A DNA stretch of 49,226 nt from Escherichia coli (GTDB lineage: Bacteria > Pseudomonadota > Gammaproteobacteria > Enterobacterales > Enterobacteriaceae): NCBI RefSeq assembly GCF_003334765.1, contig NZ_QOWT01000030.1. One strand, written 5' to 3'. Of the stretch, positions 27,001 through 33,000 are shown piece by piece. The position numbers are program-made. Position 1 is the stretch's first letter. Each line of letters begins with the position of its first letter.

Positions 27001-30000
27001 CAGTTCATATCCTTATCCATAAAAAATTTAGCTATGTCTATAGCATTAATCTTGACAAGACGACGTTAGGGCCTGGCGATGAATCATTTCCCCTGCCAGA
27101 TATCCTTTGGGGTGCACCAGAACTACCGTTTTATATCTATATAACTGAAACGTCCCTCGCCATCCTTCATATTTTGATGTAGTAACACCATTCACTTTCA
27201 TCTACCCCCCGTTTTATTAACATATAGTAAAAATCACCTCGCCGCATTTTATTCTTTTGAAGTAAAATCATTTACCAGTTCACTTAAAGCTCTCTTTTGT
27301 TCATCATCATACAGAGATTGAATCCGGAATTTAATCTCTTCTGCAACCAGTCTTGCATCGGGCTCATAAAATATTTTTGTTATTCGCTGTTTCTGATGTT
27401 CAGGCTGGTCTTCCATATTTCGTAAAACCAGATGAAATAATATATCATAAAGTGCGCAATGCCATGAATAACCATCATTGGTTAAAATAAGCTCCCAAAC
27501 CCGCTCCTGCTCGGCAATAAGCTGCAGAACAAAGGACTCAACCTGTTCTGTTTGTTCGGGGGCAACACGGTATAGCGGAGCAATCACAGCAAAAGATAGT
27601 TCATTTAACCAGGATTCCGCTTCCTTCTCGCTCCTGAACGGTGGACAGTTTTGTATTCTTCGTTCGTATTCACGGGTAATCTGCTCCAGAATATCCTCCG
27701 GCGGTGTCAGCCACTTATTCCTGAGCAATACACTGGTTGATGGATGACAGCTGGCTATTTCAGCAATAATTTCACGTAATGTCTCCGGGCTGAACTTCTT
27801 CAGCTGATTGTAGTGCTCCCGGGTAAAACCATGTTCATCGCATAAAAGTTGCCATGTCATTGATATACTGTTTGCCATTCCTTGCTTCATCATTAATACC
27901 TGTTACCTGAATATCAACAGACCGGTGTACCTTTTCTGAATACCTCCCCGGACGGAGTGGCAATCCCCATTCGCCTCAGCGTGGCATCTGCAGCTTTCGC
28001 CACCTCGCTGATATCCAGCTTTTCAGGTAGCGGCGGGGACGATATCTGCGCCAGACAATAATTCCGGCGCAACAACAACCACTCCCGTTGTGCTTCTGTA
28101 CATTCAACATTTCCCATAACAAAAAGCCAGCGGTCAGAAGCTCTGCGCCAGCAACCAGCAGCCTCCAGTTTCTGCGCAACCATGTCTTCCACAACTTCCG
28201 GGGTACTCTTTTTCCTGCTCAAAACATTAACTCACTGAAATAATATACATATCTGACGGTCTCAGCGAACCGTCCATGCCGGGCTGAAATCCTCTTCCTG
28301 AAACAGCTCCGTCAGCCCGCTAATCTGTTTCAATCTGAGAACTTCATCCTGGTCCATACCCAGCTCCGTACCAATGCGTTCATTCGTCCAGCCCAGGCGC
28401 GACAGGTCCCTGACAATATCAGACATTGAGGTTATCTGATGTTTGCCCCTGGCCCGGTTATGTCGGATGGTCGCAGCAATACGTGAGGCCTGTCCCTTTC
28501 TCTCCGGATTAATACAGACCACCGGCAGCCAGCCCTTCAGACGTTTTCCCGTACCTGCTTCCCTGCCCAGCACCTGGCGATGAAAACCATCCACCACCAG
28601 GTAATGGTTCTTTTCCTCAGACACCACCACCGGTTGTGTGAAACCATCTTTCTCCAGTGACTGCTTCAGCAGTTTCTTCTCACCCGGCGCCATGACATTA
28701 GGATTGTAATCATTGGCCACCACCTCATCTGCTTTTACCCACAGCACACAGTCCACTGGCTCATGTGCAAAAGGACTGACTTCATGAAGCACTCTGCGCA
28801 GGTGATTAAGGGCCTGTATGGTCTCTTCTTCTGGTCGTTCCTGGCTGAAGTACTGACGAATCATGTTGCCAATTATCTCCGGTGTCACAGAATCCCCCAT
28901 TCCTTCCTCCTTTCTTTCATACGCTGCAGATAACGTTCATAGTGCCGGGGTTTGTTCGGACTGAAGGAGAGGGTCCGACACCAGAAATCATTCTTTATGA
29001 GTGTCTTACAGATACGTCGCCAGGACGGGATATCCCGGCTCCCCAGGTCATTCTCCTGTTCATCCGGGATGTCATCCGGGAAGCCCCGCGTCTGATACCA
29101 GCGCAGGTAGACAGCAATTTTATTACGGTAATGTTCTGCCGTTCTTTCCGGCATCACATCCAGCAGGAACATCGCATAGCTGCGCCAGGTATGATGGGCC
29201 GGTTTTGATATACGTTTACGCAGGGCAAAATAGGCACCGCTTTCATTGGCATAAAGCGCCCCGCTGGCAGCGCCTGACACCCGCTCACACATCCTGGCCC
29301 AGGTTTCCGGCTCCAGAACATGGTAAAGCCACAGCCCCTTACGTTGTTCAGGACCAAAAGGTTCACAGACACGCATGTTGCGTAACGGCACGTCGGCACG
29401 GTACATCAGGTCATACAGAGGATTGTAAATGGCACAAGCTCTGGCGTTATATATCCAGATATCGCGGGCTTTCCAGTCATACAACGGATACATGGTGTAA
29501 TAAAACCCTTCAGGCGATGCCGTGGTCCAGGGCTTATCATCGGCATATCTCAGTTTGCGCTGAGACACCAGCCCCATAAAGCGATTGAGGGATTCATCCG
29601 CACGAACACCGGTCAGCACTGCCACTCCACACCGGTTACCGGCAAACCAGGAAGAAAATGCCGGAACAAATTCTTCAAACGTCATGGCATACCGGAAAAA
29701 GGGAAAATATGTCATATCCGTAATGGCCTCTTCCGGTGGCTGGCGAACCCAGGTCACTCCTGGCTCCCAGCATATCCACTCCGGCTGAAACTGCGAGACG
29801 CCGTTTACCGTGGTCAGGGGAAGTGCCACCCAGTAAAAGGTTTCCGTCACATCATGGTACATTTCCCGCATCTTCTGAATATGTTCAATGGTGCACCGAT
29901 ACTGGGCCTCCCAGTCAATGAACAGAACAGAGAAATGACGTTTTCTCCTGCGGGCCACCTCTGCCACAAGATGGAAAAGCACGGTGGAATCCTTTCCACC

Positions 30001-33000
30001 TGAAAAAGACAGACATACCGACGGAAATGTTTCAAAAATCCACTCAATGCGGGCGATTGCGGCACGCAAAACATTTTCTCCGGTAAGGATTTTTTCGGTT
30101 AAAAGCGTATCACTCATTTTCCTGGCTTTATGTCGAATAATTCTGTTTATACATTCATGCAAACTTCATTAATAACTCACCGCTTTGGGGATAAATAATA
30201 ACAACAAAAATCTTCAGATATTAACCTGGTTGTTGGATTTGTTATCACATCCTTTATCCACCTGCTTCTTACTGGTAACACATCTGGAAAATCCATGCAT
30301 TTTCAACATATACTATCCTTTCAACTTGTAAATAAGAAAATATGATGCAGATGGTGAACAATTCAAATATCATTTTGCAGGAAGTATTCACTGTAATAGA
30401 ATTACCCCCTGATAAAGTTTATTCACTAAGGAATTATTCAACAGAAACATTCCCTGTTAGCTTTGAGCAATAGCACTTATTTTTATATGTATCAGGAATA
30501 CGTACGTTGATGTAACCAAAACAAAGAAGCCTGTGTCCATGGGGTTCGTACAATTGTGTGTGGCACATGACCAAATCAGGTTTGAGACCTCCCGCTGCAA
30601 TATTTTTTATTCAGATTTTAGCCTGTCAGGCCTGACAGAAACGCTCCCAACTTCCCTTCTATATCACTGTCTATAGTACGTAATCTTAGCAATGGCAGGC
30701 CGCATTTCTTCAGTATACTGTTTTTAAGTTCATCACGTTCAGCCTGAACACTGGTCAGATGATAACCTCCATCCACTTCAATAACCCCTAATGGAGTCTT
30801 CCCGACCTTATAGTAAACAACAAAGTCACAACTGGCCCGGTTACGCATGAATAACTGTTCACGGTGTGTAAAATCCCCCCGCTCCAGCAACACCAACTGA
30901 TTCAGCGCTATTTGTGAATGAAACATCATACTCCGATAACTATCCTGCGACAGGATATCCCGCAACAGGCAGGCCACAATCTGTTCTGACTTAAAGTGTG
31001 AATCATTTGAATTCAATCTACTATTCAGTCGTTCCAGTGATTTGTCATACTCACTGTACAGCAAATCAAATGCTGATATGACCGGGCTCTCGAAAATCTC
31101 TCCGTCATCAGCGTAGTATTTGATGTAACGAATCAGCGCCGCAATATGTCCAGCGTGGCGTTCAAATACATCATTACCAGTCACCAGCGTAAATTTATTT
31201 CGGGCCCTTGAAACAGCGACATTCACCAGTTCAGGATTATCAACAAACGCGATGTTCCGACTGTGCTGGCTGCTGCGCTTCTTATCCAGCACAGTGGAAA
31301 ACACAATTTCATCGCACTCCCGTCCCTGAAATTTATGCACCGTCGATTTCACAAAATCAGCAGGCAGCACTTTTTCAGCCAGATTAACCTGTGCATTATA
31401 TGGGGCAATGTATCCCCTGCTACTTTCTTCATCCCAGTAATGACCTTCCAGAGATTCAAGCTCCCTGAGATTTGAAAAATTACGGGTATGGTTTCCTTTT
31501 GCCGTGATGACCAGAGATAATGAGGCTTCACCGGAATCAACCGTTAACGGTATCAGAGCATTATCATAAAACTGCTTATTACAAAATTGAATGATTTTAG
31601 GATGACAACGATAATGCTCTTTAAGAAGGGTTACTGGCACCATGTTCCTGAACAACATACAAACCGAATCAAGTAGACTATATTTCTCACAATTATAGTA
31701 TTCTGCCGGTGGAGATGGGCTGTTCGGGAGTAATACAGGAACATGTGGAAGTTGCTTACGATCCCCTACAACGATTACATTACGGGCACATCCCAGTCCC
31801 AGAATGCCCGGAACAATATCCTGCTGCGAGGCTTCATCAATAATAACATAATCAAGAAGGGCCCCCTTGCCGATAGAGTTAATAATCGAATGCGTACTGC
31901 TACCAATAATCGGAAAACGCTTTATAAAACGGTCAAATTCATCCCTGTATGTCTCTGCCGAGAATGAACTTCTTGTTGAAACATTTCTTCGCAGATGTTG
32001 CTTTAAATAAAGCATAGACCATGATGTCAGGCGCCCCAGTAAAATTTTAAAATCAGATTTTTTAAATACTTCCTCATATTCATTCAGAGAAATTTGTTTT
32101 TCCCGGATATTTTTTTCATAATAAGAAAGCTGAAGAGAAGTAAATAGCGCCAGCCTTCTCTCCGGAATCATCAATGGTTTGACTTTCAGTATCATGAAGT
32201 TTAACAACAAATCAATTCTGTTTCTGAATCCAATCCGCCTGTCAGAAAGGTAATGAATATAAGCCATCAGGTCGGTTGTTTTTTGTGAGGAAAATCGGTA
32301 TTTGTGAGAAAAAAGCTCCTCCGGTCGAAGATTCTGACTCTGCCATTGCTGCAGGTATTTATACTCAATATTCAGCTCATTAATTTCTGCTTTTAACGAA
32401 GCGACCTGGTTAATGGCATTCAGGTGTTTTTTCACTTGTTGAAGTACATCATCAATCGCATTTGCAGACGGTGAGTCAGGTAAGACTTCCTCAGAACGCG
32501 AAATCGACGTTGAAAAAAACTGTTGCCTGTTCTCCGTACTCCCCAGTCGTGCCATCACATATCCCAGTTGCTGTTTGTCCATCTTTTCATAAACATTACT
32601 GACAGCTGAGTTATTATTGGACAAAATTGCCACTGTTTTATTCTGAATTAATATATTAGCAACAATATTGAGTATAGTCTGTGTTTTACCTGTTCCAGGT
32701 GGTCCTTCAATAACTGAAATCTGTGAGGAAAATGCCCGTTCGACAGCCAGCAACTGACTTTCATTAAGACCAAACGGAAAAATCAAACCCCATGGCGAAT
32801 CACGTTTTTTACTCTGTCCTGAACAGTATGCATGCAAGGCGGTATCCGGATGAGGAACTATTTTCTTTATCTGCCTAAGGATATTCTCATCGATATTTCT
32901 GTTATTACCACGGGCATAAAAAATACGTTCATTAGCCACCCTACACAAGTAATTAAACACGGCATGCTCTGTAAATGCTGAACACTGTTGAAAGTCAAGG

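Follow-up and report, generated by a model that had tools for sequence, protein, structure and literature searches.

The window analyzed here, the full 49,226-nucleotide (nt) stretch of Escherichia coli contig NZ_QOWT01000030.1 (assembly GCF_003334765.1), carries on its minus strand, at positions 27249 to 30162, four codirectional open reading frames (ORFs) that constitute the ibrA-ibrB-pchD-ECs1389 operon of an SpLE1-type E. coli pathogenicity island. The locus is already annotated and named, and its conserved module comprises two of the four operon genes, ibrA and ibrB. A scan of one genome per species with a 9-sequence IbrA alignment yielded 79 loci (individual loci are given L numbers below), of which 78 have an IbrB homolog next to IbrA in the same orientation, the single exception being a 2.5-kb contig that ends after IbrA; the pair is likewise present in 15/15 viral loci taken from IMG/VR. 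Homologs of the PerC-family protein PchD and of the 214-amino-acid (aa) product of the last gene occur in 0/79 of the genome loci and 0/15 of the viral ones, which leaves the two-gene pair as the conserved unit. We tentatively favor the reading that IbrA and IbrB form an ATP-dependent pair that modifies DNA or a DNA-bound target, with activation of acquired genes as the output. The ORFs of the operon and the region ahead of it are as follows.

28885..30117, minus strand: ibrA (ortholog of Sakai ECs_1386), 410 aa; PP-loop ATP pyrophosphatase domain of the phosphoadenosine phosphosulfate (PAPS) reductase fold plus a C-terminal helical DUF3440
28262..28900, minus strand: ibrB (ortholog of ECs_1387, "ybdM" in Sakai), 212 aa; ParB/sulfiredoxin (Srx)-type N-terminal domain with DGFHR and a C-terminal helix-turn-helix
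27914..28183, minus strand: pchD (ortholog of ECs_1388), 89 aa; small PerC-family regulator
27249..27893, minus strand: ortholog of ECs_1389, 214 aa; all-helical, found only in Escherichia
30118..30617, minus strand: AT-rich intergenic region 5' of ibrA, the presumed promoter/regulatory region of the operon

An initial annotation of this DNA had described the four-gene layout, and its main elements are all present on the minus strand: the SFSGGKDS motif in the first product, VVDGFHRQ in the second, an overlap of exactly 16 nt between ibrA and ibrB (found also in locus L002), and a 20-nt gap between pchD and the 214-aa gene. The 40-nt gap that it had placed before pchD is in fact 39 nt if translation begins at a TTG at 28222, giving 102 aa, and 78 nt from the ATG at 28183, the start used by RefSeq and in Sakai, which gives 89 aa. 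A similar choice exists for ibrA, which can be read from a TTG at 30162 as 425 aa or from an ATG at 30117 as 410 aa; the latter has an AGGA just upstream and is the start used by RefSeq. The 450 nt upstream of this ATG have a G+C content of 34%. Promoter and terminator consensus scans of the operon were uninformative, and the four sigma-70-like sites on the minus strand between 30629 and 30195 are consensus matches only. Cotranscription is supported by two Shiga toxin-producing E. coli (STEC) strains, in which ibrB, perC, and the next hypothetical gene bear successive locus tags and show a joint 2.4- to 7.6-fold induction by RNA-seq once the bacteria have spent 3 h on intestinal epithelial cells (PMC7649339).

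The match to the Sakai SpLE1 stretch amounts to 99.7% nucleotide identity over 3701 bp, with protein identities of 99.8% for IbrA, 100% for IbrB, 98.9% for PchD, and 100% for the 214-aa protein, and the four genes agree both in order and in length (1233, 639, 270, and 645 nt). In Sakai they are annotated as ECs_1386 (ibrA), ECs_1387 (labeled ybdM), ECs_1388 (pchD), and ECs_1389 within the prophage-like element SpLE1. IbrA/IbrB, which the initial annotation had mentioned, is the closest named relative, and the block that it described is this annotated one and not an unrecognized module. The operon is presumably also related to the ibrA/ibrB "immunoglobulin-binding regulator" genes of ECOR-9. 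RefSeq labels the four products "phosphoadenosine phosphosulfate reductase," "IbrB-like domain-containing protein," "PerC family transcriptional regulator," and "hypothetical protein." The 3.4-kb block was found in 2166/5426 complete E. coli genomes, with at least 80% of it present in 968 of the 5426 (about a fifth). The four-gene arrangement is not a product of chance, given its recurrence in these 968 genomes and the pairing of its first two genes across distant taxa.

The 79 loci come from Enterobacterales, Bacillota, Bacteroidota, Verrucomicrobia, Desulfovibrionaceae, Sphingomonas, Dyella, candidate phyla, and two Asgard archaeal bins, and the full-length IbrA family amounts to 285 representatives at 50% clustering (E < 1e-30). 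IbrA homologs were also recovered in 142 cultured phage records, whose hosts include Flavobacterium, Streptococcus, Lactobacillus, Microbacterium, Mycobacterium, and Escherichia. One of the cultured phages, Streptococcus phage PY1, encodes in succession lysis genes, small ORFs, a DNA helicase, IbrA, the ParB-like protein, and then recombination and replication genes. About 18 Enterobacteriaceae loci share the neighbors ybdL, a LysR-type regulator, ahpCF, and uspG and hence represent the ybdN/ybdM locus of E. coli K-12, with IbrA identities of approximately 59 to 62%. This K-12 pair resembles ibrAB in having a PAPS-reductase/DUF3440 gene followed by a ParB-like protein of 209 to 212 aa; it differs in occupying a fixed chromosomal locus by ybdL, ybdO, and ahpCF in many Enterobacteriaceae, in being repressed by YbdO, and in lacking both the PerC-type and the ECs1389-type genes. 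Repression of ybdNM by the LysR-type YbdO was established by chromatin immunoprecipitation-exonuclease (ChIP-exo) and RNA-seq analysis, with ybdN up by a log2 value of 5.5 in the ybdO mutant, and ybdO itself is described by the same authors as H-NS regulated (PMC9068703). A 2022 study referred to YbdM as "completely uncharacterized" and found that its overexpression costs 10% of growth (PMC8764527).

Two further arrangements were seen among the viral contigs. In a lambdoid prophage from IMG/VR (L003; 3604-7846 and 8001-9856), a 91%-identical ibrAB is transcribed opposite to its neighbors, in a layout like that of a moron insertion; these neighbors, judged from their N-terminal sequences alone, look like a DNA methyltransferase gene, RusA- and NinG-like members of a nin region, and replication genes. 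In three metagenomic viral contigs (L014, 9803-11226; L016, 6536-8866; L011, 3150-4738), an IbrA-IbrB pair of 53% identity has two or three paralogous genes in tandem behind it, the encoded proteins starting with a motif such as MPPQKG..RY.LW or MPPPKDPEKY, and in L014 and L016, ORFs of 984 to 1122 aa lie close to the pair.

IbrA combines a PAPS_reduct PP-loop domain bearing the SFSGGKDS motif (Pfam E values of 3.5e-7 and 4.6e-7) with a following DUF3440 (7.3e-24). A structure predicted from 37 diverse homologs (pLDDT 87.6; pTM 0.85) finds its best matches over only the N-terminal 160 to 180 residues, and these belong to the clade of flavin adenine dinucleotide (FAD) synthetase, CysD, and PAPS reductase. 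Among 117 IbrA sequences, the residues kept in at least 93% include S39, G41, K42, D43, and S44 of the PP-loop; D68, E70, G170, R172, E175, and S176; W114, W117, W123, and R125 of a Trp-rich insertion; P211, Y213, D214, W215, and D219; and N232, Y235, R249, P253, and G255. The SGGKDS, DxE, and GxRxDES motifs are accordingly conserved across the family, and we counted them in favor of adenylyl transfer, as we take them to be the ATP-handling motifs of the AMP-transferring clade members, CysD and FAD synthetase. IbrA shares with FAD synthetase (the PAPS domain of human FLAD1 and yeast Fad1) and CysD the SGGKDS-type PP-loop and the GxRxDE motif, which together suggest AMP transfer to a phosphate- or sulfate-type acceptor. 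It is set apart from them by an identity of only 18 to 22%, its Trp-rich insertion (W96, W114, W117, W123), the 150-residue helical DUF3440, and its DNA-binding-type partner. Cys251, in a loop of the form RxCxP[FY]G, is present in 101/117 sequences (86%) and Cys116 in 82/117 (70%). Because no cysteine is invariant, cysteine chemistry is not required throughout the family, but most members, this one included, could use a thiol or persulfide.

The IbrB product contains VVDGFHRQ and is recovered by PHROG 2159 ("ParB-like"; 1.8e-82), with Pfam ParB_N reaching only 0.016. A profile built from 14 family members unified it with solved structures of ParB (4umk; 7.7e-7), Noc (7ol9; 1.5e-6), and Spo0J, the matches ranging from 7.7e-7 to 3e-2 and being concentrated in the N-terminal domain; when the sequences of IbrA, IbrB, and the 214-aa protein were each compared singly with solved structures, nothing beyond PP-loop, ParB-N, or chance matches was obtained. 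The IbrB protein has a ParB/Srx-type N-terminal domain with the DGxHR motif and a C-terminal helix-turn-helix. In 77 IbrB sequences, the positions kept at 90 to 100% are N63-x-Y-N-P-N68, E74, S81, D85-G86, P90, D104-G-F-H-R108, T144-I-R-H-N-R-A-R-G152-x-H154, and, in the helix-turn-helix, L-G-M-x-x-D-E-V-x-R-L-K-Q. In the same set, the ParB/Srx pocket has some 20 polar residues with 95 to 100% conservation, and so many invariant polar positions imply a putative nucleotide-binding or catalytic pocket, beyond what DNA binding would call for. VVDGFHRQ stands where Helicobacter pylori ParB has LIAGERRL, so that DGFHR takes the place of GERR; we take DGFHR to be the sulfiredoxin/DndB-type version of the ParB motif. 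The domain guesses of the initial annotation are borne out by these results for its PAPS-reductase-like protein (Pfam PAPS_reduct and DUF3440) and, through PHROG 2159, for its ParB-like protein, as well as by the PerC match given below; of the profile searches that it had proposed, those with PAPS_reduct and DUF3440 recovered their domains, and the one with the ParB domain of Pfam did so only at the marginal value just noted.

Outside Enterobacterales, the pair has recurrent additional partners. In 14 loci (L059, L061, L063, L064, L066-L068, L070, L074-L076, L084, L087, and L096), the gene immediately preceding IbrA on its strand, approximately 1 to 2 kb upstream of the IbrA match, encodes an SNF2-type helicase (PHROG 62; 1.2e-99), and in 5 of these 14 the helicase is preceded by a zinc-ribbon protein of ~390 aa (PHROG 16123). 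We found no mention of this extended SNF2/zinc-ribbon and IbrA-IbrB module in the literature searched. A small GNAT-like ORF of 118 to 155 aa touches IbrA in 24/79 loci (L063, 8321-8716; L068, 8286-8705; L075, 6588-6989; L074; and 20 other loci), mostly between IbrA and IbrB and, in three Bacteroidota loci, upstream of IbrA. In L074 (5704-7440), the GNAT-like part is fused to the C terminus of IbrA in a 578-aa protein; an apparent fusion of the same kind in L089, a high-GC genome, is probably an artifact of ORF calling, and only L074 was counted. Three loci (L054, L069, and L082) have the reversed order, with an IbrB of 381 to 395 aa, bearing an extra C-terminal region, upstream of IbrA. The association with SNF2 and GNAT-like proteins points to a pathway of enzymes whose target is double-stranded DNA.

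The two remaining genes of the operon are Escherichia-specific additions to ibrAB. The pchD product is a full-length PerC domain (Pfam PerC, 8.7e-37, model positions 2 to 89 of 90), and at 98.9% identity it is PchD itself among the PerC/Pch regulators of enteropathogenic and enterohemorrhagic E. coli (EPEC and EHEC). PchD is a group-2 Pch protein that, unlike PchA, PchB, and PchC, has little effect on ler and the locus of enterocyte effacement (LEE) (PMC6265319). The 214-aa protein, which the initial annotation had left without an assignment, has no match in Pfam, NCBIfam, PHROGs, or PADLOC; its ORF is a real gene, as its homologs are conserved at 48 to 100% identity. They form only 41 protein clusters, and every cluster with a source name is from Escherichia. 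Its predicted structure, of moderate confidence (pLDDT 71.7), has twelve helices and matches only generic or designed helical repeats, so that no function can be read from it. A 52%-identical paralog is encoded in L097 (790-5040; E. coli contig JAOZWX010000066), which has neither ibrAB nor a PerC gene (pchD), downstream of a NERD-UvrD helicase, a 101-aa ORF, and a VasL fragment. In both contexts a protein of this type is encoded a few genes downstream of a superfamily 1 (SF1) helicase gene, which may be a coincidence. We rejected the four genes as one conserved system on the grounds that homologs of PerC and the 214-aa protein are found in 0/94 loci and that the paralog of the latter occurs without ibrAB. 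The test of gene-neighborhood conservation that had been proposed in the initial annotation therefore upholds the ibrA/ibrB pair and fails for the PerC and 214-aa genes.

Several established systems combine a PAPS-reductase-family PP-loop enzyme with a ParB/Srx-superfamily protein, namely, those of DndC/DndB, SspD, and BrxP, which act or are proposed to act on DNA (PMC12839542). The initial annotation had cited the DndC/DndB and DpdC/DpdB pairs of DNA modification; the former is alike in outline, being a PAPS-reductase-fold ATP pyrophosphatase with a ParB/Srx protein, and the latter was a mistaken example, because DpdC is a DUF328 protein, with DpdA being the tRNA-guanine transglycosylase (TGT) enzyme (PMC12839542). 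With PADLOC, IbrA gave weak matches to BrxP (9.2e-8) and DndC (1.9e-4 and 1.2e-3), strongest over the PP-loop region; the BrxP match covers only residues 35 to 113 of the 425-aa ORF, i.e., the PP-loop region. IbrB, PchD, and ECs1389 have no match in PADLOC-DB v2.0, and no DndB or DpdB model matches IbrB. None of the genes for DndA, DndD, DndE, SspABC, PglZ, BrxC, or BrxL is annotated in the operon or its flanks. IbrA further differs from the Dnd, Ssp, and BREX enzymes in having no conserved cysteine cluster and in carrying DUF3440 as its extra domain rather than DUF4007 or a ferredoxin-like region. Accordingly, we rejected membership in Dnd (weak DndC matches, no DndB match, and absent partner genes), in type 4 BREX (a partial PP-loop match to BrxP, with no PglZ, BrxC, or BrxL annotated nearby), and in Dpd (no TGT or DUF328 gene annotated in the region and no DpdB match for IbrB), and the operon does not belong to any anti-phage defense system cataloged in PADLOC-DB v2.0, where the weak matches of IbrA to BrxP and DndC are all that was recovered. 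The catalytic cysteine of CysH sits in a C-terminal ECGLH-type motif, of which IbrA has none, its nearest cysteine being the C251 of RxCxP[FY]G; IbrA also falls far below the curated cutoffs for CysH (TIGR02057, 33 versus 254.2 bits; TIGR00434, 29.3 versus 165.1; NF002537, 34.2 versus 154) and was rejected as a member of that family. IbrB was similarly rejected as a partition ParB, as it is without the GERRxRA patch, has no adjacent parA, and scores 20 versus 315 bits with the NCBIfam Noc model.

The operon is embedded in a mosaic island. On its 3' side lie insertion sequence (IS) remnants of the IS3 family, a major facilitator superfamily (MFS) transporter gene, and the aerobactin genes, and on its 5' side a helicase gene, a POTRA/HecB-like gene, IS elements, and iha; in strain H3, the island adjoins a tRNA-Ser gene. 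The following features were delineated in the window, the names of the hsd and dar genes being taken from a 99%-identical annotated E. coli region.

3656-6094, plus strand: hsdM
6088-7434, plus strand: hsdS
7446-8102, plus strand: darT
8087-9166, plus strand: darG
9185-12280, plus strand: hsdR
12280-12996, plus strand: M48 metallopeptidase gene, directly after hsdR
13571-15658, minus strand: 695-aa ORF, a neighbor of the aerobactin cluster
15897-25175: aerobactin cluster iutA plus iucDCBA (minus strand), then the MFS transporter gene (23982-25175)
25661-26933: IS3-family remnants, between the MFS transporter gene and the 3' end of the operon
30618-33299, minus strand: intact SF1 helicase gene, 893 aa, with Pfam AAA_11, AAA_12, and a C-terminal DUF2726, just upstream of ibrA

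The plus-strand unit at 3656-12996 is a type I restriction-modification unit in which a darT-darG toxin-antitoxin pair is inserted between hsdS and hsdR. The SF1 helicase matches PADLOC models of the Mokosh type (MkoA, 1.1e-43; MkoC) and PDC-S37 and is a candidate helicase-nuclease defense gene. The Sakai SpLE1 has the same upstream helicase gene and the same island neighbors, iha and the HecB-like gene; the helicase is a pseudogene there (ECs_1383) and intact here, and the window's island has aerobactin and the type I restriction-modification/darTG genes, whereas a 50-kb SpLE1 stretch has ter and ureG upstream of iha. The junction between the helicase gene and ibrA was seen in 622 E. coli genomes, compared with the 968 that have the four-gene block.

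In the mechanism that we tentatively favor, the functional unit would be the translationally coupled IbrA-IbrB pair. IbrB would bind DNA through its C-terminal helix-turn-helix and a nucleoside triphosphate in its ParB/sulfiredoxin-type pocket (NxYNPN, DGFHR, RHNRARGxH), and would position, recruit, or switch on IbrA. IbrA, acting as an ATP pyrophosphatase, would put AMP on an acceptor, phosphate-type or similar, that is carried by DNA or by a DNA-bound target. The AMP would then be displaced by a second group, a step that Cys251 could join in most family members. Outside Enterobacterales, the SNF2 translocase and the small GNAT-like protein would join the pair, which would fit a multistep DNA modification. 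The outcome would be altered expression of silenced acquired genes and, in phages, DNA that is marked or remodeled early in infection, with PchD and ECs1389 being probable Escherichia-specific passengers that are cotranscribed with the pair and induced on host-cell contact. This reading draws on the near-invariable pairing (78/79 and 15/15), the conserved pocket of IbrB, the SNF2 (14 loci) and GNAT-like (24/79, one fusion) partners, the FAD-synthetase/CysD-like fold of IbrA, its largely but incompletely conserved Cys251, and the gene layout of PY1. A regulatory output is supported by the co-induction of ibrB, perC, and the next gene on epithelial cells and by the repression of ybdNM by YbdO. 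As to its nature, source annotations name IbrA/IbrB a "co-activator of prophage gene expression," and in ECOR-9, as Sandt and colleagues are said to have reported in 2002, ibrA and ibrB together switch on otherwise poorly expressed prophage eib genes, which encode surface proteins.

Weighing against a modifying pair are several observations. The DUF3440 half of IbrA found no structural match in a whole-protein search, one that is dominated by the N-terminal domain, and Cys116 and Cys251 occur together in only 77 of the 117 sequences, with 11 having neither. The small ORF is weakly GNAT-like, with a best Pfam E value of ~4e-4 in 2 or 3 of 12 members and weak PHROG acetyltransferase matches, and the E. 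coli ibrAB loci are without both the SNF2 and the GNAT-like partners. A k-mer search of the upstream regions of 12 ibrAB loci recovered no common motif, operator, or parS-like site beyond near-identical prophages. No family member is known to produce a modified nucleoside or an adenylated intermediate or to bind DNA, and the acceptor could be RNA, protein, or a small molecule. In the literature searched, we found genome-annotation mentions and no mechanistic or biochemical study of the IbrA/IbrB family, and in a 2026 preprint on anti-plasmid systems ParB figures only as a microscopy reporter; the alternative posed in the initial annotation, of a modification or a regulatory module, consequently still represents the current state of knowledge. 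The stronger version of the modification proposal is doubtful: it holds that IbrA-IbrB is the core of an undescribed, non-Dnd/Ssp DNA modification pathway begun by adenylyl transfer, joined elsewhere by SNF2, GNAT-like, and zinc-ribbon proteins, which phages would use early and which E. coli islands and ybdNM would use as an epigenetic-like switch to turn on acquired genes that are silenced.

Gene activation, the sole phenotype on record for the family (source names; PMC7649339), would also be accounted for by a purely regulatory switch that leaves nucleic acid covalently unchanged, in which IbrB would be a VirB-like ParB-family anti-silencer working as a nucleotide-dependent clamp, IbrA would make, consume, or modify its ligand or modify IbrB itself, and PchD would serve as a second activator. 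The helix-turn-helix and conserved nucleoside triphosphate-type pocket of IbrB, the presence of a PerC-family regulator in the operon, the AT-rich promoter region, and the dedicated repressor of the K-12 paralog ybdNM are all in keeping with such a switch. We nevertheless consider it unlikely, as IbrB has VDGFHR in place of the GERRxRA patch of cytidine triphosphate (CTP)-binding ParB, the linkage to SNF2 and GNAT-like proteins and the place among phage early/replication genes would be unexpected for a simple transcription factor, and PchD is absent from every locus outside Escherichia. Another reading is a role in conflict between mobile elements, with the pair marking its own DNA early against host restriction or serving the island as an anti-phage or anti-plasmid defense pair. 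Homologs of IbrA in the 142 cultured phage records, PHROG families, and viral contigs, the position of the pair beside early genes in PY1, and the company that it keeps in the window (type I restriction with darTG and an adjoining helicase-nuclease matching Mokosh and PDC-S37) would suit this role, and a 2026 preprint lists PAPS-reductase and ParBc proteins as candidate effectors. Yet PADLOC v2 is without a match for IbrB, PchD, and ECs1389 and its matches to IbrA are weak; the pair lacks a nuclease, toxin, or membrane effector; its paralog is a stable Enterobacteriaceae chromosomal locus by ybdL, ybdO, and ahpCF; and the helicase is linked in only 622/968 genomes and is a pseudogene in Sakai. 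On balance, a conflict role appears decidedly unlikely.

The largely conserved C116 and C251 would suit a persulfide relay, a point in favor of IbrA acting on RNA, modifying, for example, a tRNA or mRNA base in the manner of TilS, ThiI, or TtcA, with IbrB as its regulator only. This we regard as very improbable: the nearest folds are those of the FAD-synthetase/CysD/PAPS-reductase clade and not tRNA enzymes, Pfam detected no RNA-binding domain in IbrA, its obligate partner is of the ParB type, which binds DNA, and a double-stranded DNA translocase is the recurrent neighbor. That IbrA is a true PAPS reductase of sulfate assimilation, an "auxiliary metabolic gene," is what the RefSeq and PHROG names and the fold matches would have it be, and it is scarcely credible in view of scores of 33 versus 254 bits with the PAPS reductase model and 29 versus 165 with cysH, the missing ECGLH, and an intact ATP-type PP-loop, extra DUF3440, and obligate ParB-type partner that misfit CysH. 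The names "phosphoadenosine phosphosulfate reductase" and "auxiliary metabolic gene" are almost certainly misleading for these phage and island genes.

Taken by itself, the locus is ordinary, being a named block of a well-studied EHEC island. What it carries is a two-gene enzyme module that is conserved from ybdNM of K-12 to Asgard archaeal viruses and dairy streptococcal phages. If the module is only a regulator, it would represent a new way of using the ParB/sulfiredoxin fold together with an adenylyl-transferase. If the DNA modification reading that we tentatively favor is true, the pair would constitute a new kind of modification system and would account for the activation in trans of prophage virulence genes by an island.

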